Assembly (NCBI GenBank): GCA_011835815.1
Contig: GCA_011835815.1_3615.1
Strand: one strand, 5' to 3'
From: a phage
Length of the DNA: 64,000 bases
A model generated the notes under the pieces. The model was not told the DNA's origin. It saw nothing but the letters and a program-made list of their open reading frames with translations, and ran no database searches. This document shows positions 2,634 to 51,119 of the stretch, piece after piece. A program made the position numbers and the translations under genes. Positions within the stretch are counted from its first letter, which is position 1. Every line of letters begins with the position of its first letter.

Positions 2634-2984
2634 ATGAAAGTCAAACTATATTACCTTAATGAGCTTAACCCCCTTGCCCAGGTCCGCGCCCTAGCTAATA
2701 CCTTGATTTGTGAGAAATCTGTATATTGTGTTGAGCTTAACGCCATGCGTGAACGTCTCAAAGGTGGTTACTTTGACATCCATGCTGCAATCAACGGCCT
2801 GAATATGGAATTTATACGCTTACGTAACAGCCGCCGGAATCTGGCAAGAATGGAACAAGATCCGGCCCACCTTCGTAAGCTGGTTATTGAAAATCATCTG
2901 ATGTTTAATGCCGAGGGTGATTATTACCATTTTCACCGCAAACGCTGGTACCGTGGCGGCAATACAGGTAAGAATGCAAAATAA
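2634..2984 (+). CDS. hypothetical early protein
   Basis: 116-aa ORF followed by strong hairpin terminator. Confidence 0.5.
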   Translation: MKVKLYYLNELNPLAQVRALANTLICEKSVYCVELNAMRERLKGGYFDIHAAINGLNMEFIRLRNSRRNLARMEQDPAHLRKLVIENHLMFNAEGDYYHFHRKRWYRGGNTGKNAK

Positions 2985-3020
2985 GGCCCCTAGCAGGGCC
3001 TGCAGCAATATAATCACATA

Positions 3021-3055
3021 AAGGCCATGCAACCGCATGGCCTTTATTATTTTGG
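3021..3055 (+). terminator. rho-independent terminator
   Basis: AAGGCCATGC-AACC-GCATGGCCTT hairpin then TTATTATTTT. Confidence 0.65.
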
Positions 3056-3101
3056 CGTTACAACGGCATACGGGGCGCTTAAAAAATTTTTAAAGAAGTA
3101 C

Positions 3102-3130
3102 TTGCATCATTCCCGACAATATGGATAATA
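3102..3130 (+). promoter_or_regulatory. sigma70-like promoter
   Basis: TTGCAT-N17-ATAATA. Confidence 0.5.
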
Positions 3131-3186
3131 AGAGTTGTCGAGGGGGAGGCCCCCAATCGTTGACCAGATAGATAGGAGTTAAAATC

Positions 3187-3471
3187 ATGGCTATTGTTAC
3201 CGCTGGCGATGTAGTAGAAATGGAAGCAAAATACTTAAAAGCGGGTATGCACATCCTACGGAATGATCAAGAGTTATTATTAACGATGGTTGACTATAAT
3301 CACGGCCAGGATTATCCAAGCATCGACTACTTTTTTGAGTATGTTGATGAAGAGTTGAAAGAGGATGAGGCCTATTGCGGTGAGTTCTGCAACTTCTTTT
3401 GTCCTGATGAGGTTGTAAAGGTTATTTATCAACCTGGCGTAGCTTTCCCGCTGCACGCTATCAATAAATAA
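3187..3471 (+). CDS. hypothetical early protein
   Basis: 94-aa acidic ORF with AGGAG SD, promoter upstream, hairpin downstream. Confidence 0.55.
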   Translation: MAIVTAGDVVEMEAKYLKAGMHILRNDQELLLTMVDYNHGQDYPSIDYFFEYVDEELKEDEAYCGEFCNFFCPDEVVKVIYQPGVAFPLHAINK

Positions 3472-3526
3472 ACCTGGCGGGGCCGAAAAGGCCCCCAATT
3501 ATGAAAATAAAGAGAGGCAAATCATC

Positions 3527-3760
3527 ATGATGGAACAAATTAAACGCGCCGAGGCTATTAATGGCAACGTGATCTATTTTGTCAGCAAAAACGAAAAAGG
3601 CGTACCATATGCGGCAGTAATAGTACAACCTGACGGCGATTATTGGTTTACTGTGTACGGCGCTTATTCTTTTGGGCGTCCAGTGCATGATAAAATTTTG
3701 AAAGTAGCGAACCCTACCGGGAAGAATATCACAGCAGAAAAATTTTTTGAAAATAGTTGA
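3527..3760 (+). CDS. hypothetical early protein
   Basis: 77-aa ORF with AGAGAGG SD. Confidence 0.5.
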   Translation: MMEQIKRAEAINGNVIYFVSKNEKGVPYAAVIVQPDGDYWFTVYGAYSFGRPVHDKILKVANPTGKNITAEKFFENS

Positions 3761-6734: not shown

Positions 6735-7154
6735 ATGAACATTAAATCTAATAATCCGGCATATAGCTTTGATAACGCTTTTTGTCACGGTCCGGCGGCG
6801 AAAGGTTTTGAAATTGATGGTAAACTAATTATTGTCAATGTTGACGGGGAAGAGGTTGCAGTATATCCGGTGGCAGACGTAAAAAGCCGTTTGCAATGCC
6901 GCATGGATGTTACCGCCTATCAGCTTGATCCGGTCCGCATAGTTGCCCTGGTCCTGGAAGAAGAAATTAAAGCCATGCACCATAGCAACAGGTTTATTGG
7001 TGACGCACAGGATAATATGAAGGTATGCCGCCATAAAGTTAATGAAGTGCTTAAAGAATATGGCTTTAAAGATCTGATGATCAAACGTGAGGAAAAATTC
7101 CGCTACCGTAACGACCTGGCAAATCGAATCTATGAAATATACGAATCATTATAA
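6735..7154 (+). CDS. hypothetical early protein
   Basis: 139-aa ORF with AGAGG SD; promoter upstream, terminator downstream; last + strand gene before the gene desert. Confidence 0.55.
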   Translation: MNIKSNNPAYSFDNAFCHGPAAKGFEIDGKLIIVNVDGEEVAVYPVADVKSRLQCRMDVTAYQLDPVRIVALVLEEEIKAMHHSNRFIGDAQDNMKVCRHKVNEVLKEYGFKDLMIKREEKFRYRNDLANRIYEIYESL

Positions 7155-7172
7155 TTTCTTAACTAAACTATC

Positions 7173-7202
7173 AGGGGCTTTAAAAGGCCCCTTTCTTTTT
7201 GT
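7173..7202 (+). terminator. rho-independent terminator
   Basis: AGGGGCTTT-AA-AAGGCCCCT hairpin then T-run. Confidence 0.65.
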
Positions 7203-7810
7203 CTGTATTTCTCCTACCACAAACGGCCCAGCCTGGCAAGTGGAATAATTGACTAGCCATCAATCCCACACACTGTACAAACATACATGTAAAATAACTA
7301 TTGCATAATTTTTCATTGTGTGGTAGCAGGTCCATTTTTACCCGTTTTCTCTCTCAAAATTGCACGTAATGCCGCTATTGCACAAAATTTAACCTGATGC
7401 ACATCTTCAATATCTTGTCAACAACTAAAAATCTTTATAAGTCATACACTTACACACTCACAAAAGCGTGTTCTACGTGAAAAATCGAGTATAACTATAG
7501 CCGCCAGATCTCAGAATTTACGTACGCTCACCATTCTATAGTCTGCTAAGTATTTATTCCAACCATGGAATAACGGAATAGTCAATACCTGCATAAAATA
7601 ATTATTCGTGTAAACTGCATAACATAAATCAGCTTATGTGTCAACATTCTTGGTAAACAGTCCGAAATTGTAACGGTAAGTTATAATAAACAGAGAAATC
7701 TTTAGTCGTCTAATGTTTACTGTACATAACTATACTGACTGGAATCATTAGATGACTAAGAGAAAGATAAGAAATAATTAACAATACAATTATTTTATCT
7801 GTAACAATAA

Positions 7811-7984
7811 GGCAACTATGCAAACGAATGGCATGGCGCGACGGAGTCGCGACATAATATAAAAGCAGTAACCATCACCCCCGTGATAGTTTGTCTGCAA
7901 TCTATTAATCAGATCATAGTTGCCTTGTATTCAGTTAATCATGACATAATAAGCAAGGCAACTATAGATCTGCTAATAGTTGCC
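7811..7984. repeat. four copies of GGCAACTAT in alternating orientation, including a perfect 12-bp inverted repeat
   Basis: Copies near 7811(+), 7916(-), 7957(+), 7976(-); ATAGTTGCCTTG...CAAGGCAACTAT arms; also a 19-bp direct repeat TGCAAACGAATG(G/T)CATGGC at about 7819 and 8047. Confidence 0.6.
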
Positions 7985-8075
7985 CTGCTTTTATATTATG
8001 TCATATATTATTAACTTGTTAATTGTTAACTTGCTAATTGTTTTCATGCAAACGAATGTCATGGCTTATCCTATC

Positions 8076-8147
8076 TGTGTAAACAGTTAAGGTGTAAACT
8101 ATCCAGGCGTAAACAGTCTATGCGGGAACAATCTATACGTGAACAGT
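8076..8147. repeat. three copies of GT(A/G)AACAGT at roughly 31-bp spacing
   Basis: GTAAACAGT near 8076 and 8108, GTGAACAGT near 8139; a related GTAAACTA between. Confidence 0.45.
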
Positions 8148-8759
8148 GAAACATGAAATAATAACAGTCGTTATTGTGTCGAAAGTGTATAAGGTGTCAG
8201 ACAAGTTTTTCTCCTCTTTGTCAAGTGCTGCATGAAAAATTTACAATCTGGTATGGTAGCATTTTTGCGGCCCGGTTTACATTCAGTTGTGTATGTATAA
8301 CCCTTGTTGTGTGGGCGTTTAGACGTCTGGACGGTCAGAAGTCCGCAGGTTAATATCTAATCTATTGGCTGCTAACTATATCCCACACAAATAGTAAGAA
8401 ATATAATTGTTATGTGCGTAAACGGTAACTCATGTTATCAATCCCTGTATGTATCGCCAGTGGTGCGCATAATAGGTATTATGTTAAATTGCCAGTAATG
8501 ATAACTATTCTCACAATGATAGGTATTCTCATTCACTCCCACAAGATAGGTTGCAAATGTTGTGCCACTGTGTGAACGGCCTCACCTATTAATTTGCCTC
8601 ACTGCCTCGATATTTGAGAATTGTTATAAGAATGAGAAGTATTCCCATTTCGTCCGCCTGGCAGCACTCCAGTCGCTACCGGCTCCTGACAGGGAGGCAC
8701 TCCTGTTGGTCAGGTCAAAATCGGGGTAGAACTGGGCCTGTTCAGATATTTCTGGCTGA

Positions 8760-9947
8760 CTCTTCAGGTCTGTGTGGGAAAAGCCAACCTCTCCGGCGGC
8801 GGGGAGGGGGTCAATTAAAAAATTTACGGGGTATATGAAGCGCTCTTCAGGTAAGGCATGTACTATGGGATGAGACCCTCTTCAGGCAATGATATTTGTG
8901 GGTGTGATATTTGCTGGAAAGCCAGATATGACGGGACTCCCGGCGGGGCAGGGGTAGTACAGACAGGGAAAATATGGGGATGTAGTTGGGTGAATTGATC
9001 GGGCAGGTAGAGTATGGAATATGTTACAAGTATGTTAAATATGGAGGGTGAATATCTGCAGGATTTGTGTGTAAAATCAAAGACTTAAGTAGTGTTGTGG
9101 TATTTTCTATAAATAATTCAAGTTTAATAGGTAATATTTGTCTCTATCCACTTTGTGTGGTAAACAAATTCAAATGAGATTGGTTTACAAGTGTATACAT
9201 AATATACAAATTAAAGATACAAGAAACCCCCCTCCCCCTTCGGCTACCATTCACCTTTTCCTCTGACTGGTACTTAAACACTTATTCAGACTCTTCAGGT
9301 TATCACCCATATACCATATGGCAGTGACTGGTGTCCTCCGGCCCCTCTTTCGTCACCCGTCCGCTTCGCCATGCTAATGCCATAGCTAATGGTTCGGTTG
9401 TTCACCCTGTTCACTCAGGTGTATCTCTATACCCCTTCAAACCGAAGAGAACAGAAAACCCGAATTACTCGGTAAAAGAAAAGAGAAGAACTTAATTTTA
9501 TCAGGATAGGCAAGAATGTCAAGGCATGACTGCTCACTAAACAAGCAAACAGTCATGTGTGGGAGGTAAGTGATTGTGGTGGTAGGAAATTTAGTTGAAA
9601 GATGTGTTATAGGTGCTTCCAGCACTTTAGCCTGGCAGCTAATTGTGTGTCAGTCCAGCGGTTCATCCTCTACTTCACTGAAATCAATGTTCATGGTCTC
9701 TTCCCAACCATCGATCTCAGCACAAGAGTGGAGTTCTTTAGGGTTTACTCCCAAAGCCTCAGCAACAGAGTCTATATTTAACACCCCTGGCAGGTATGAT
9801 TCATCGAATTCAAGGTAAATCAGGCCACGAGTGTTGTCAGCTCCACCAAATATCTCTATCTTCATAAAATCTCCTCTGGGAATGAAAGTGTGAACAGGGT
9901 TTTATACGTTCTAATGCACAGGAATTATACACGTTTGCCTCTTCAGG
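8760..9947. repeat. dispersed 9-mer CTCTTCAGG (5 copies)
   Basis: Exact copies near 8760, 8843, 8877, 9291 and 9939, all same orientation, all in non-coding DNA. Confidence 0.5.
9650..9865 (-). CDS. small highly acidic protein
   Basis: 71 aa, rich in D/E; most promoter-distal gene of the - strand block. Confidence 0.5.
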   Translation of the reverse strand: MKIEIFGGADNTRGLIYLEFDESYLPGVLNIDSVAEALGVNPKELHSCAEIDGWEETMNIDFSEVEDEPLD

Positions 9948-43599: not shown

Positions 43600-43628
43600 A
43601 TAATAAGTAAAGCCGGGTAATCCCGGCT
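43600..43628 (-). terminator. rho-independent terminator (- strand)
   Basis: AGCCGGG-TAAT-CCCGGCT hairpin downstream of 43635-44348. Confidence 0.5.
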
Positions 43629-43634
43629 ATGTTG

Positions 43635-44348
43635 TTAAATATACTCTGTTACATCCTTGAAGCTCGAAGGCTTCATGATCTTACCTTTACTGTCAAGGAA
43701 TATAATAACTTTATTGCCGTTGTAGAACTCCTCTTTAGCAACGAAACCTTCGTAGCGACCACCAAAACGACGCTCAAGATCTTTAATCTCCAACTCGATG
43801 AGTTGTTCAGCAGGCATATCTGCACTGGCACCGTGTGAATGCCGTAGATGGTTGATCCGTGCAAACTTACTGTCATTAGATTTTAGAACCTTCCGCATCA
43901 TCCCACACACATCCCCGCTAAGCTGGAACAGCAAAGCTGTTGATAACTCCGCTAGTCGGTAAGCTGACGCTCTTTGCTTGGATGTGTTTTTCGCAGCGAT
44001 CAGTGTATCATAGAACTCACCGATCTTGAACTTAAGACCTCGCGGATTATCAAACAGGTTTGACCACTTTTCGTGGTTATCATTAACAAGATAAGCTGCA
44101 TAACTTGTGACAACGTGAAGATCGCAGGCCTCTTTTAGCAGGTGATCTCCACCATCACCTTTCTCCAGCTCTTCCAAAACCTCATTGAACTCTTCCTCAA
44201 TGAAGCTAAGCTGTAATTCGAATGGTGTGTATGATTTTTTCACTTTAGCTGCCACACGGTTCCAGTTTTCCACCCAGTTGGCAGACCAAAGGTAGTTTTC
44301 AGGCTGGGACAGTTTTTCCAGGTTGTCGATCAGTTTAGTATTCAGCAT
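43635..44348 (-). CDS. hypothetical protein, possibly MazG-like NTP pyrophosphohydrolase
   Basis: 237 aa; acidic cluster FIEEEFNEVLEELEKGD is reminiscent of MazG; weak. Confidence 0.3.
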   Translation of the reverse strand: MLNTKLIDNLEKLSQPENYLWSANWVENWNRVAAKVKKSYTPFELQLSFIEEEFNEVLEELEKGDGGDHLLKEACDLHVVTSYAAYLVNDNHEKWSNLFDNPRGLKFKIGEFYDTLIAAKNTSKQRASAYRLAELSTALLFQLSGDVCGMMRKVLKSNDSKFARINHLRHSHGASADMPAEQLIELEIKDLERRFGGRYEGFVAKEEFYNGNKVIIFLDSKGKIMKPSSFKDVTEYI

Positions 44349-44361
44349 TAAAGGTCTCCTT

Positions 44362-45123
44362 TTAAAGTTCCATAAAGTTTTCTACAGTTTCAATAAATGC
44401 TTTATCAGAGAAAGCGTCAACAGCACCGTTAAACCATACAGGGATCCCGCGATCCTCATATTGATAAAGGTCGCTACGTGGAATGCCACTTCCATCTGCA
44501 CTCTGCGAATCATACTTGTTTACAATCAGCAGTTTTGTGCCTTTACAAGTAGCAGGAAACAATTCCCAGTTAAAATTAATAACTGTGTTAGAACAACCTA
44601 CCAGGATCACCATATCATTGCTTGTGAGAGATGTCAACAGGTCATACATGTCTGTATACTTAGGAGCAACCTCACCGAAGAACACTACATTGGGCTTAAC
44701 CCAGGTATACTTGCCTGTATCTACCTCCGTGTATCCGATATTTTTAATTACATCATTACCTTCAGCATCTTCGTAGGTGATTTCAGGCAAATACCCGTGG
44801 ACATGTAAAATATCTTCATGTTTTACACCAGCACGCTCCAGCAAATCATCTACATTGGTAGTAAGGTTGATCACACGACCAGACCAGCGGGAATACCACT
44901 CAGAGATCCGAAGATGTGCAAGGTTAGGATCAACACTGCCCAGAGCTACACGACGTGCATTGTAAAAGTCATGCACCTTATAGTAGTTCTTGGCAAAGGT
45001 GTGGATGTTGCACACCTCATCGATGCTGAAATTCTCCCACATTGCAGTGCTACCAGATCGGAAAGTGGGAATACCAGATTCAGCGCTCAAACCAGCACCG
45101 GAGATAATAATCAGTCGTCGCAT
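44362..45123 (-). CDS. Sir2-family (sirtuin-like) NAD-dependent protein
   Basis: 253 aa; N-terminal IIISGAGLSAESGIPTFRS matches the Sir2 GAG(I/V)S...GIP.FR NAD-binding signature. Confidence 0.75.
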   Translation of the reverse strand: MRRLIIISGAGLSAESGIPTFRSGSTAMWENFSIDEVCNIHTFAKNYYKVHDFYNARRVALGSVDPNLAHLRISEWYSRWSGRVINLTTNVDDLLERAGVKHEDILHVHGYLPEITYEDAEGNDVIKNIGYTEVDTGKYTWVKPNVVFFGEVAPKYTDMYDLLTSLTSNDMVILVGCSNTVINFNWELFPATCKGTKLLIVNKYDSQSADGSGIPRSDLYQYEDRGIPVWFNGAVDAFSDKAFIETVENFMEL

Positions 45124-45131
45124 AAGTGTCC

Positions 45132-45512
45132 TCAGTAGATGTTTTGTTTAATCTCTATTCCAAACTTCTTGAATGAGTCAGCAGCAAGCATAAATTTACG
45201 AGCTGCCGATGGATTAGAAGTATGCACGAAAATAATCACGTTGTCAATAAGTGGTGGCTTTCCGAATACAAGTTTCTCCTCTAGCGCAGAGAAGCAGTCG
45301 TACCCTTCAAGCACTTCACCTAGATCATTGTCAAAATGCCACTCAGAAACGCGCCTGTAGAGCTTTCTATTATCGTTAATAAAATCCATGAACTCAGAAG
45401 AGTTCTTCAGCCAAAGAGCATCTTGGATTCCGTAATTTGACGGATCTCTCAAGTCATCTAGCCACACAATCAACTTCTTCATTGCATATAGTCCTCGTTG
45501 TGAAAATAGCAA
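45132..45512 (-). CDS. hypothetical protein
   Basis: 126-aa ORF directly upstream of the Sir2-like gene. Confidence 0.5.
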   Translation of the reverse strand: MLFSQRGLYAMKKLIVWLDDLRDPSNYGIQDALWLKNSSEFMDFINDNRKLYRRVSEWHFDNDLGEVLEGYDCFSALEEKLVFGKPPLIDNVIIFVHTSNPSAARKFMLAADSFKKFGIEIKQNIY

Positions 45513-46414
45513 TCAAGTATCTCACGGCGTTCCTGCTCCAGGAGGCAGTTCCACACATCTTCTGTGTAATTGCTACGAATGAAGTTTACCATGCCATAAA
45601 ACTCTTCGTCAATACGTTTAAAGATATCATCATCCCAAATCTTCCAAGCTTTACCCCTCATTACGGCCTTCCGTGCCAAATAGTATGGAGACTTGATCTT
45701 CAGCTGCAGGTCATAAGGGTAGTAAGGCTTACGGATCATATACCCTTCGCCCCTTGTTTCTGCAGCTAATTCTTTTGCATAGCTGAACGGGATTTCACGC
45801 ACAGTGTGAGGACGTTTTGCACCAAGGTATTTGGCAATCCCATCTAAAGCTGCTTCTGGTAGCATTATTCCAGAATCATTATATCTGCAACCTATCAAAT
45901 ATGCGCCATGGTCTTCTTGAACAATATGCGGATCTGAAGGGTGACAAATTTCAAACATGAATGTCATGTTTTCATTGCCCATAACCTTCTTGATAAGATC
46001 TAAATTACCACATTGCTCTTGGATGGTTTCCTTTGCAAGGTTACAATATGGAGAATCAAGAGACCCGGTTGTTGAGAACAATAGGTCACCTTTATGAGAT
46101 GATACCACACCAAGGAATCCGTTCTTTTTCTCTACCGCAGTCACAAGCTTATTGTCAGGCAGGTTGGTGGAGTTTTCTCCCAAGTTAAACACTTTTGTGA
46201 AGGGCCATGCCACAACATTTCCTTCATTACCTACAACAATGCCTCGGCACTCCAGTAAACGAGGGGACAAATGCCATAAATTGTTGTAAAATACTTTTCT
46301 AGCATATTTATAGATCTTTAACCCGAGATCTGGGTAATACCTACTGGTTACAAGACCTTTGTCAACTAGGTCGTCTGCATTAAAATACTTCATCATACGT
46401 TCCTCATTTGTCAT
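45479..46414 (-). CDS. RNA ligase, T4 Rnl1 (RnlA) family
   Basis: 311 aa; LECRGIVVGN, KVFNLGEN, AVEKKNGFLGVVS (KxxG lysine motif), FMFEICHPSDPHIV and GYMIRKP...LKIKSPYY are collinear with T4 RnlA blocks as I recall them. Confidence 0.8.
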   Translation of the reverse strand: MTNEERMMKYFNADDLVDKGLVTSRYYPDLGLKIYKYARKVFYNNLWHLSPRLLECRGIVVGNEGNVVAWPFTKVFNLGENSTNLPDNKLVTAVEKKNGFLGVVSSHKGDLLFSTTGSLDSPYCNLAKETIQEQCGNLDLIKKVMGNENMTFMFEICHPSDPHIVQEDHGAYLIGCRYNDSGIMLPEAALDGIAKYLGAKRPHTVREIPFSYAKELAAETRGEGYMIRKPYYPYDLQLKIKSPYYLARKAVMRGKAWKIWDDDIFKRIDEEFYGMVNFIRSNYTEDVWNCLLEQERREILDCYFHNEDYMQ

Positions 46415-46514
46415 TTTGTCAGTCTATCCTGCCACACAAATAACCTAGTGTCAACACTTGAAATTAACAAAACAGTTAGATATACTATCGTTGAAATTAA
46501 AACGGAGGGTCACT

Positions 46515-46925
46515 ATGTCTAAAATGCTATATATCGTGCGTGGTCTACCAGGGTCTGGCAAATCAACACTGGCAAATGCGCTATCTTTAGAGGGTCTGTA
46601 TCCACATTTTGAGAACGACATGTTCTGGTATGACGATGACGGCAATTACAACTGGGATGCAAGTAAAGTAACACTCGCAGCGAAATGGTGCAAAGATAAC
46701 GTAGAAGATATGATGCGTATGGGATACGACCGTATCGTGGTAAGTAATACGTTTACAAAAGAAAAACATGTGCAGGAATATGTTGACATGGCAATCAGTC
46801 ATGGGTATAGTTATACCGTGATCGTGGTTGAAAACCGCCACGGTAATAAAAGCATTCATGATGTTCCAGACAGGGTTGTGGATCGTATGGAACGCCAGCT
46901 TAAAAACTGCATTAAACTTAAATGA
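46515..46925 (+). CDS. P-loop kinase, candidate polynucleotide 5'-kinase
   Basis: ATG at 46515 with GGAGGG SD (track ORF starts 46458); MLYIVRGLPGSGKSTLA Walker A; divergent from the RNA ligase. Confidence 0.6.
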   Translation: MSKMLYIVRGLPGSGKSTLANALSLEGLYPHFENDMFWYDDDGNYNWDASKVTLAAKWCKDNVEDMMRMGYDRIVVSNTFTKEKHVQEYVDMAISHGYSYTVIVVENRHGNKSIHDVPDRVVDRMERQLKNCIKLK

Positions 46926-46932
46926 GGAATGT

Positions 46933-47487
46933 ATGAAATACTTTGTAACAAGCGACACACACTTTCTCCACCAGCGGGTCATGGAGTTCGATTCATGTCA
47001 AAAACACAGATCTCAGTATGATCACAATCTTGACAGTATGAATGCGGGAATCATCACCAAGTGGAACTCTGTTGTGTCACCTGCAGACACTGTGTTTCAC
47101 TTGGGAGATATTGCGTGCACTAATGATAAGAATATCAACAAATTGCTCCCAGATATTCTAAATATGTTGAACGGACATATTATTCTTGTTCGTGGTAACC
47201 ATGACACAAGGACGACTGTCAGAATTATGAAAGAGTTCGGTCATGAGGTTGTAGATTATTACGAGCTTCGCCACAACAAGAATTTGATCTGTATGAGCCA
47301 TTACCAGTTTGCAAAGTGGAACAGAAAGCCTCACGGATCAGTCCAACTGTTCGGTCATGCTCACGGAACCACACAGCAGTTGTTTGGCAGGCAGTTTGAT
47401 GTCGGTTGGGATGTGTGGGGGAGACTCTTACCATTAGAAGAGGCATACCGTATTGCAATGAGTCTTGCTATTGACAGCGGGGAGTAA
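46933..47487 (+). CDS. calcineurin-like metallophosphoesterase, candidate 2',3'-phosphatase
   Basis: ATG at 46933 with GAGGA SD; VTSDTHF, GDIACTN and VRGNHD metallophosphatase motifs. Confidence 0.65.
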   Translation: MKYFVTSDTHFLHQRVMEFDSCQKHRSQYDHNLDSMNAGIITKWNSVVSPADTVFHLGDIACTNDKNINKLLPDILNMLNGHIILVRGNHDTRTTVRIMKEFGHEVVDYYELRHNKNLICMSHYQFAKWNRKPHGSVQLFGHAHGTTQQLFGRQFDVGWDVWGRLLPLEEAYRIAMSLAIDSGE

Positions 47488-47534: not shown

Positions 47535-47885
47535 ATGAAAGATGGGGATAAGCTGCTATATCTTAAAGTCCCCCTTGAAATACTGTCTATGTCAAAAGTT
47601 TTGAATGACACAACTGGGGAGGTTGTTGTTCTTGACTTATATGACAAGATCGTATACTGCTACCTGCACAACTGGTATAAGCTTGGAGGAAATTCACGCT
47701 TCACACCCAGCACAAGGAAAATTGCAGCAGATGTTGGGATAAAGAAAACAAAAGCAGCAGCGTGCGTTAAAACTTTAGAATGTGCAGGAGTGGTTGAAAT
47801 ATCCACACAAGGGAGAGGTAAAAGATGTACATTTTCCAAAGTTTTGCCACCAGAAGAGGTTATTCGAATGTCAACAACTGGTTAG
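47535..47885 (+). CDS. putative winged-helix DNA-binding protein
   Basis: 116 aa; TRKIAADVGIKKTKAAACVKTLECAGVV is HTH-like; directly upstream of the iteron array. Confidence 0.45.
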   Translation: MKDGDKLLYLKVPLEILSMSKVLNDTTGEVVVLDLYDKIVYCYLHNWYKLGGNSRFTPSTRKIAADVGIKKTKAAACVKTLECAGVVEISTQGRGKRCTFSKVLPPEEVIRMSTTG

Positions 47886-50629: not shown

Positions 50630-50717
50630 GGTGAGTTAATTCCGTAGGGGTAGCGGGGCAGACTGTAAATCTGTTATCATTGCGATTCGGGTGGTTCGAC
50701 TCCATCACTCACCACCA
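50630..50717 (+). tRNA. tRNA-Tyr (anticodon GUA), class II
   Basis: Acceptor GGTGAGT/ACTCACC, anticodon arm GCAGA-CTGTAAA-TCTGT, long variable arm, T-loop GGTTCGACTCC, CCA; D-arm register uncertain. Confidence 0.65.
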
Positions 50718-51020: not shown

Positions 51021-51119
51021 GCTAGGTAAGCCCTTTGGCAAGGGCGAGGATTTTTAATCCTGAAAATAGACGAGGTAGTCGTTGAATACATAGGTGGTTC
51101 GATTCCATCGCCTAGCACC
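51021..51119 (+). tRNA. atypical tRNA-like gene (about 97 nt), anticodon possibly UUU (Lys)
   Basis: Perfect acceptor GCTAGGT/GCCTAGC, D-arm GCCC-TTTGGCAA-GGGC, anticodon-like hairpin GAGGA-TTTTTAA-TCCTG, canonical T-arm; but about 30 nt inserted between anticodon stem and T-stem. Confidence 0.4.

Follow-up and report, generated by a model that had tools for sequence, protein, structure and literature searches.

A predicted RNA healing-and-sealing module divided among separate proteins in Vequintavirus and other phages

In phage T4, the polynucleotide kinase-phosphatase Pnkp and the RNA ligase Rnl1 repair tRNA and so counter the host anticodon nuclease PrrC. We asked whether a differently built version of this repair is encoded in a 64,000-nucleotide (nt) stretch of phage DNA (contig GCA_011835815.1_3615.1 of GenBank assembly GCA_011835815.1; hereafter the window). 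An earlier reading from the letters and open reading frames (ORFs), which we call the sequence-only reading, had placed at 45479-47487 an RNA healing-and-sealing cassette consisting of an Rnl1-type RNA ligase and, transcribed divergently from it, a P-loop kinase and a metallophosphatase. On following this up we found all three genes to have intact catalytic residues and to be linked, in part fused, in many other phages, and we consider it probable that they form an accessory RNA healing-and-sealing module that acts as a conditional counter-defence against host ribotoxins cutting tRNA or other RNA. The features concerned, with lengths in amino acids (aa), are:

45479-46396, minus strand: predicted Rnl1-clade ATP-dependent RNA ligase, 305 aa; a nucleotidyltransferase domain followed by a short C-terminal stretch of ~65 aa
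46397-46514: divergent intergenic region between ligase and kinase, 118 bp
46515-46925, plus strand: predicted minimal stand-alone P-loop polynucleotide 5'-kinase, 136 aa (AAA_33, phrog_505 and a family profile)
46933-47487, plus strand: calcineurin-like metallophosphoesterase (MPP) of the aq_1665 type, 184 aa; presumed 2',3'-cyclic-phosphate or 3'-phosphate end-healing enzyme

The three ORFs lie on the strands originally given, and every motif quoted for them was located in the translations. The ligase ORF, first drawn as 45479-46414, is real, but its start is more likely the ATG at 46396, which is favoured by a GAGGA Shine-Dalgarno sequence, by the fit to homologue N-termini and by the start annotated in phage Bas56 (AlexBoehm, Escherichia), which is 99.5% identical to this region of the window; with that start the divergent layout stands and the gap, put at about 100 bp, becomes 118 bp. 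At least 80% of the region is covered at high identity in 118 phage records, and those that carry a taxonomy line are Vequintavirus (rV5-like myoviruses). The span proposed for the cassette holds the real trio but omits two further genes of the ligase operon that the sequence-only reading did not mention, namely those for a cREC protein (45132-45482) and a Sir2-family protein (44362-45123). Profile searches, the check suggested with that reading, put ligase, kinase and MPP above the curated gathering cut-off of their Pfam families, and the PHROG matches of the trio were far stronger (phrog_562, 7e-66; phrog_2071, 9e-58; phrog_547, 2e-51).

The ligase scored 55.3 bits against Pfam RNA_lig_T4_1 (cut-off 28.3), and its motifs, numbered from ATG 46396, are LECRGI (48-53), FNLGEN (70-75), K90-K-N-G93 and KIKS (233-236). 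A single-sequence phmmer search of the PDB with this protein gave nothing meaningful and did not recover T4 Rnl1, so that a family profile was needed; a profile of 32 members matched T4 Rnl1 at 2.2e-15 over T4 residues 51-249 and matched Rnl3 at just 4.5e-3. K90-x-N-G93, F148-E149, E217-G218 and K233-x-K235 (motifs I, III, IV and V) are invariant in the 32 homologues, and K90, G93, E149, E217, G218, K233 and K235 align with T4 K99, G102, E159, E227, G228, K240 and K242. Also invariant are R51, K68 and F70, which align with T4 R54, K75 and F77; in mutagenesis by the Shuman laboratory the essential T4 Rnl1 residues outside the shared motifs were reportedly Arg54, Lys75, Phe77 and Lys119. By sequence and by structure the ligase is closest to Rnl1/Trl1 rather than to Rnl2, Rnl3, Rnl4 or Rnl5. 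The block-by-block match to T4 Rnl1 described earlier holds for the nucleotidyltransferase domain and goes no further: after motif V the ligase has ~65 residues, with four helices modelled within residues 237-299, compared with ~130 in T4, whose C-terminal all-helical domain (~120 aa, residues 255-374) confers tRNA specificity. The ligase also scored 38.8 bits against NCBIfam TIGR02308, the T4 RnlA equivalog model (cut-off 242.25; model positions 32-251 of 373), and this score and the short C-terminus together indicate an Rnl1-clade enzyme that is not a T4 RnlA orthologue. Searches with the ligase reached 540 protein clusters at E ≤ 0.001 and, by tblastn, 815 phage records, not all of the short type. 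A 422-aa homologue (P0042) was considered as a ligase-cREC fusion and dropped, its extra residues being N-terminal and not identified. In the Vequintavirus phage vB_Eco_Alma (L002:2680-3595) the ligase gene is broken into two ORFs (matches at 2683-3432 and 3389-3625), reflecting either a frameshift, possibly with pseudogenisation, or a sequencing error.

A P-loop kinase had been called from the motif GLPGSGKST (residues 10-18), and this call is borne out by Pfam AAA_33 (42.8 bits, cut-off 27; E 8.5e-11) and by T4 Pnk as the best solved relative. Here too single-sequence phmmer against the PDB gave nothing meaningful and a family profile was needed; one of seven members found T4 Pnk first (1ltq; 9.8e-13; residues 1-147, the full kinase domain), with Pnkp1, PSTK (a tRNA kinase) and the CthPnkp kinase domain ranking next, and phrog_505 ('polynucleotide kinase') was matched at 5.9e-10. 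K16, S17 and D35 align with T4 Pnk K15, S16 and D35 (the catalytic Asp), and R108 lies in an ENRHG lid region. The HAD (DxDxT) 3'-phosphatase is absent from this 136-aa protein, whose alignment covers the T4 kinase domain alone; a bare kinase domain agrees with the claim that end healing is divided between proteins.

That a metallophosphatase stands in the place of the T4 HAD domain was likewise upheld, in that a catalytically intact MPP is a conserved neighbour of the kinase. It exceeded the cut-offs of both Metallophos_2 (29.0 bits vs 27) and Metallophos (27.9 vs 21.5), carries SDTHF (7-11), GDIA (58-61) and GNHD (88-91), and keeps its metal ligands D8, H10, G58-D59, G88-N89-H90, H123, G141-H142 and H144 invariant in 36 sequences. 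The likeness drawn to the bacterial Pnkp arrangement is good at the superfamily level only, as the MPP is of the aq_1665 type and not of the bacterial Pnkp type. We looked for MPP fusions as Rosetta-stone evidence and found none, all 90 of 90 homologues being stand-alone proteins of 149-239 aa.

If the three proteins act together, their genes might be expected to stay together, and in other phages they do. We scanned IMG/VR and searched by profile the ORFs within 6 kb of the ligase at 80 loci whose ligases are 37-90% identical to that of the window. Ligase, separate kinase and MPP were found at 55 of the 80 (median trio span 2263 nt), every locus with a separate kinase having an MPP as well, and an MPP lay within 6 kb of the ligase at 62. 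At least six gene orders occur among the 55 loci:

MPP > ligase > kinase: 39 loci
kinase > ligase > MPP: 10 loci
ligase > kinase > MPP: 3 loci
ligase > MPP > kinase: 1 locus
kinase > MPP > ligase: 1 locus
divergent (MPP < kinase <, then ligase >): 1 locus

The divergent layout was seen in L010 alone, the locus nearest the window (ligase 90% identical; presumably Vequintavirus); elsewhere the cluster is co-directional, and this rearrangement is specific to Vequintavirus. The trio is also adjacent in annotated phages of five other groups, namely Phapecoctavirus, Otagovirus, Pakpunavirus, Saclayvirus and an unclassified Vibrio phage.

At 12 further loci of the 80, all from uncultivated phages (L047, L048, L052-L054, L058, L059, L061, L062 and L064-L066; e.g., L064:5527-6825), the kinase is fused N-terminally to the ligase in a single protein of ~430 aa, and one such fusion was confirmed by Pfam as AAA_33 plus RNA_lig_T4_1. 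No aq_1665-type MPP lies within 6 kb at any of the 12. A search for a substitute phosphoesterase beside the fusion genes of L064 and L048 found upstream ORFs of ~230 aa with no Pfam or PHROG match, which could encode an unrecognised phosphoesterase. Linkage that has survived many rearrangements, together with kinase-ligase fusion, is good evidence for functional coupling, and the natural fusions lend indirect support to the predicted phosphorylation of 5'-OH RNA or DNA by the kinase. Separately, a 754-aa 'Ser/Thr phosphatase' of Staphylococcus phage PT94 (L009:2561-4825) matches the window ligase; it is probably a member of phrog_8238, whose profile also matches the window kinase, and if so would be a candidate for a bacterial-Pnkp-like kinase-phosphatase-ligase fusion in a phage.

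Whether the genes are needed for growth can be judged from Bas54, a close relative with the same gene order, for which a transposon-sequencing preprint (Extended Data Table 8) reports insertions on E. coli K-12:

Sir2: 48 of 51 TA sites hit, non-essential
ligase: 56 of 60 TA sites hit, non-essential
kinase: 33 of 36 TA sites hit, non-essential
MPP: 26 of 27 TA sites hit, non-essential
cREC: 16 of 21 TA sites hit, intermediate

Dispensability on K-12 fits a conditional accessory module.

The Rnl1-clade ligase, the T4-Pnk-like kinase, the intact MPP, their linkage and the fusions together support an RNA repair module. For its counter-defence role and target, its substrates, the order of its steps and the way in which MPP and cREC share the work we infer the following scheme. 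A host ribotoxin would cut tRNA or other RNA and leave 2',3'-cyclic-phosphate and 5'-OH ends; the MPP would remove the 2',3'-cyclic or 3'-phosphate to give a 3'-OH, a step that in Vequintavirinae the Asp-based cREC may share; the kinase would then phosphorylate the 5'-OH, and the ligase, adenylylated on Lys90, would seal the 3'-OH and 5'-phosphate ends.

A number of observations weigh against this scheme. The position of the essential T4 Lys119 is an invariant Thr110 in the ligase family, and the ligase has no counterpart of the T4 Rnl1 tRNA-specificity domain, the profile alignment stopping at T4 residue 249. The T4-type tRNA repair originally proposed therefore keeps its Rnl1-clade enzyme but not an RnlA equivalog with that domain, and tRNA as the ligase substrate is what we infer. 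In the kinase, Trp38 takes the place of the substrate-binding Arg38 of T4 Pnk, and family members differ at this position. No RNA 3'-phosphatase is among the characterised proteins that come nearest to the MPP in structure; these are LpxH and three diesterases or nucleases (MJ0936, YfcE and MPE). Part of the synteny may come from shared myovirus ancestry rather than from selection. Bas54 mutants of the orthologues were not depleted on two uropathogenic E. coli (UPEC) isolates, and retron Eco2, a system that nicks tRNAs in their acceptor stems, is still able to restrict Vequintavirinae. Lastly, the literature searched shows no biochemical test of the short-ligase, minimal-kinase or aq_1665-type MPP family.

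The remaining genes of the ligase operon and the signal at its end are:

45132-45482, minus strand: cREC, a receiver-like 'cyclic-phosphate processing' protein, 116 aa, candidate second phosphoesterase (Pfam cREC_REC)
44362-45123, minus strand: NAD+-dependent enzyme of the Sir2 family, 253 aa, encoded third in the ligase operon (Pfam SIR2, 8.8e-28)
43635-44348, minus strand: MazG-like protein, 237 aa, last gene before the terminator (phrog_671 nucleotide pyrophosphohydrolase, 1.9e-21)
43611-43628: GC-rich hairpin, terminator-like on both strands (pattern scan; annotated terminator in phage Alma)

The cREC protein matched Pfam cREC_REC (PF20274) at 5.7e-14 (53 bits, cut-off 27), and its D9/D10, D51/D53, T88/S89 and K96, a receiver-type acidic pocket with Thr and Lys, are kept in 19 homologues. 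Its start ATG overlaps the ligase TGA as ATGA, so it is probably translationally coupled to the ligase; all 55 of 55 matches are stand-alone, with no fusion to other domains, and annotated records of Vequintavirinae from several hosts also show cREC beside a gene labelled RNA ligase. Sir2 begins 8 nt past the cREC stop with GAGGA in front and has intact GAGLS, GIPTFR, TTNVD and HVHG motifs; its role in a repair module is uncertain. The MazG-like protein carries an EEEF...EELE...EACD motif, and a related gene is present within 6 kb of the ligase at 12 of the 80 loci; its membership of the module is doubtful. The hairpin at 43611-43628 is the likely end of this leftward ligase-cREC-Sir2-MazG-like operon. 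In the 118-bp divergent gap a pattern scan found no leftward consensus sigma-70 promoter for the operon; a rightward sigma-70-like TTGAAA-17-TATACT lies at 46458-46486 (plus strand), and a GGAGGG Shine-Dalgarno sequence precedes the kinase ATG. A PADLOC scan of Sir2, cREC, MPP, ligase and kinase gave no defence matches save weak P-loop ones for the kinase.

Six loci with ligases 46-49% identical to that of the window, which are probably other Vequintavirinae, are co-directional in the order MPP > ligase > cREC > kinase > Sir2 > DNA ligase, and there the ligase > cREC > kinase order puts cREC inside the core cluster. With cREC at 10 and Sir2 at 11 of the 80 loci, both are lineage-specific additions to the trio. 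The cREC domain was defined by Iyer et al. 2021 (PMC7824862) from neighbourhoods with RNA ligases and NAD+ enzymes, and was proposed there to open 2',3'-cyclic phosphates or ADP-ribose cyclic phosphates. In two Pseudomonas phages, phiPsa347 (L005) and C2-10_Ab02 (L006), the ligase-kinase pair is directly beside NAD+-related genes annotated as ribose-phosphate pyrophosphokinase and nicotinamide phosphoribosyltransferase, an association that echoes the Sir2/cREC link of Vequintavirinae. Orthologues of these NAD+ genes are reinterpreted as NARP1 in a paper on the phage Adele (PMC12846349), and L006 also has a 'phosphatase' gene that by gene order is the Poa1p-like macro-domain gene of Adele.

Directly 3' of the MPP gene, at 47535-47885 (plus strand), lies a gene for a helix-turn-helix protein (DUF6945/HTH_36) that matches phrog_12838, 'replication initiation protein', at 2.5e-80 and is labelled a transcriptional regulator in Bas56; its Bas54 orthologue is 'intermediate' with few insertions, unlike its dispensable neighbours. 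Elsewhere in the window, at ~6780-9300, there is a gene-free gap of ~2.5 kb where the direction of transcription switches and GC skew changes sign. Bas56 has no features in the equivalent gap between bas56_0129 and bas56_0130, and an intergenic region of ~2 kb in Bas54 that appears to be equivalent received no insertions in the transposon study, a hint of an essential cis element there, e.g., an origin of replication.

A cluster of phage tRNA genes lies 3 kb from the module and includes tRNA-Lys(UUU). This tRNA is the species cleaved by PrrC and is a target of PARIS too; the nearby cluster suggests independently that tRNA loss is a pressure on the phage. The tRNA-Lys gene itself (51021-51117, plus strand; annotated as tRNA-Lys in Bas56) is odd: it is 97 nt long, has the anticodon loop UUUUUAA that reads as tRNA-Lys(UUU), scores 29.4 bits with Rfam and carries a 26-nt insertion in the variable region, which is unusual for a class I tRNA, and ARAGORN misreads it as having a 4-base anticodon. 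An anticodon-loop intron was considered for this odd tRNA of 97-99 nt and rejected, as ARAGORN -i found none and the Rfam alignment assigns the 26 additional nt to the variable region. At 50630-50714 (plus strand) there is also a tRNA-Tyr(GUA) with a long variable arm (Rfam 39 bits), which ARAGORN missed in the window; it directly follows tRNA-Arg in Bas56 and is ~130 nt further from tRNA-Arg in the window, so that either an insertion or a rearrangement sets the two tRNA clusters apart.

Could the same genes be explained otherwise? They might be unrelated accessory enzymes in an island of dispensable genes, with MPP and cREC degrading immune signals derived from cyclic nucleotides or ADP-ribose, the kinase acting on nucleotides, Sir2 on NAD+ or proteins, and the ligase having a separate role. 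Iyer et al. 2021 (PMC7824862) do propose calcineurin-like and cREC enzymes as counter-signal phosphodiesterases, NAD+-reconstitution and macro-domain genes adjoin in Pseudomonas phages, the genes are individually dispensable and the MPP family has no known substrate; we nevertheless judge this unlikely in view of the tight MPP-ligase-kinase linkage through at least six rearrangements, the kinase-ligase fusions and the polynucleotide kinases that are the nearest solved relatives of the kinase. Rather unlikely, in our estimation, is a four- to five-component, NAD+-linked repair pathway in Vequintavirinae, in which cREC, and not only the MPP, would act on the 2',3'-cyclic phosphate and so take over the function of the missing T4-type HAD phosphatase, and Sir2 would perform an NAD+-dependent step, e.g., a Tpt1-like removal of the junction 2'-phosphate or the handling of an ADP-ribose cyclic-phosphate by-product. 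The NAD+-reconstitution and Poa1p-like macro genes beside the ligase-kinase pair in Pseudomonas phages would fit such a pathway, which by analogy would be a bacterial-virus counterpart of the fungal Trl1/Tpt1 pathway made from unrelated parts.

We hold it quite unlikely that the locus processes DNA ends, with kinase and MPP cleaning 5'-OH/3'-phosphate DNA breaks for the nearby ATP-dependent DNA ligase (or, in a variant, the MPP acting as an MPE/PdeM-like nuclease) and the RNA ligase being incidental: the kinase is fused to the RNA ligase and not to a DNA ligase at 12 loci, the trio is kept at 51 loci with no DNA ligase detected nearby, and the kinase profile also matches the tRNA/RNA kinases PSTK, Pnkp1 and CthPnkp. 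Maturation of the phage's own RNAs, e.g., cutting and re-joining of the 97-nt tRNA-Lys(UUU) in a Trl1-like manner as in fungal tRNA splicing, is improbable: ARAGORN finds no anticodon-loop intron, the added 26 nt belonging to the variable region, no splicing endonuclease was noticed in the neighbourhood, and the genes are dispensable on K-12. The label 'RNA ligase and tail fiber protein attachment catalyst', carried by phrog_562 and many GenBank records, would make the ligase a T4 gp63-like catalyst of tail-fibre attachment. This we regard as very improbable: the Bas54 ligase takes insertions at 56 of 60 TA sites whereas the N-terminal domain of T4 rnlA is intolerant of them, the protein is not a T4 RnlA equivalog, and its gene lies among nucleic-acid enzymes and not tail genes. 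Leaving aside the NAD+-linked pathway, each of these four rivals has some support, but they explain the fusion and linkage data less well than an RNA healing-and-sealing module does.

Set beside T4 Pnkp (pseT) and Rnl1 (rnlA), the module has the same combination of an Rnl1-clade ligase with a T4-Pnk-like P-loop 5'-kinase and the same presumed logic, i.e., to heal the 3' end, phosphorylate the 5' end and seal, and both systems are accessory and host-dependent. It differs in that no HAD 3'-phosphatase is fused to the kinase, the candidate phosphoesterases being a stand-alone aq_1665-type MPP and cREC, in that the ligase has 305 aa rather than 374, without the tRNA-specificity domain and with Thr in place of Lys119, and in that the ligase is non-essential (in Bas54), unlike the rnlA N-terminal domain. 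With the bacterial Pnkp/Hen1 system of Clostridium thermocellum and Pnkp1/Rnl/Hen1 of Capnocytophaga it shares a kinase, a binuclear metallophosphoesterase and an ATP-dependent ligase, but these are three separate proteins here, whereas bacterial Pnkp unites kinase, lambda-phosphatase-like MPP and Rnl4-type ligase in one polypeptide. No Hen1 methyltransferase is encoded among the genes at 43.6-47.9 kb or, judged by the Bas56 annotation only, in the rest of the window. Compared with fungal and plant Trl1 (LIG-KIN-CPD), the phage fusions have the reverse domain order; there is no 2H cyclic phosphodiesterase and no Tpt1 homologue was seen, and the operon has a Sir2 gene instead.

Among phages, PaAdele_025/026 of the Pakpunavirus Adele (PMC12846349), Bas54 and Bas56 have identical protein families and the identical proposed role in tRNA repair. 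The 2025 Adele paper (PMC12846349) proposed a role for the orthologous kinase and ligase in restoring cleaved tRNA and noted that the kinase has no phosphatase domain; published descriptions of the orthologous pairs and trios leave MPP and cREC outside the pathway. Vequintavirus departs from those pairs and trios in that kinase and MPP are turned round with respect to the ligase and that cREC and Sir2 are added to the ligase operon. In this operon, as in the neighbourhoods of Iyer et al. 2021 (Viruses 13:63; PMC7824862), cREC is found with an RNA ligase and an NAD+-using enzyme (here Sir2); those neighbourhoods are from jumbo phages and ours is from a 135-kb myovirus.

How much of this is new? 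The observation is correct and is not new at the annotation level, and its novelty was over-rated in the sequence-only reading: the same labels stand in GenBank (in Bas56 'RNA ligase', 'polynucleotide kinase', 'putative phosphoresterase' and 'sirtuin domain NAD-dependent deacetylase'), and the idea is in print for the Pakpunavirus orthologues. A literature search on rV5 with 'RNA ligase' and 'phosphoesterase' returned no papers. Phage RNA healing and sealing was already known, so that, with both annotation and interpretation public, the finding is incremental as a discovery; what we did not find stated in the records and literature searched are the aq_1665-type MPP, the presence of cREC and Sir2 in the Vequintavirinae cassette, and the natural kinase-ligase fusions. 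As an aside on the records, this region of an E. coli Vequintavirus is matched at 97-98% identity by about 18 entries labelled 'Campylobacter phage' (MG0656xx); probably the host labels are wrong or the phages came from E. coli in the samples.

Defences that cleave tRNA (PrrC, RloC, Cas13, PARIS, retron effectors) are now seen as widespread, and to our knowledge the T4 system is the sole phage RNA-repair counter-measure that has been dissected experimentally. The T4 version has a far narrower spread among phages than the family described here, in which a short Rnl1-type ligase is combined with a minimal kinase and an aq_1665-type phosphoesterase; candidate therapeutic phages of E. coli, Klebsiella, Pseudomonas, Acinetobacter and Vibrio are among those that carry this family. 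If the module were shown to work, it would explain differences in host range on strains with anticodon nucleases, would tell what cREC and the so far uncharacterised aq_1665 MPP family do, and might possibly yield compact RNA-end-modifying enzyme reagents.

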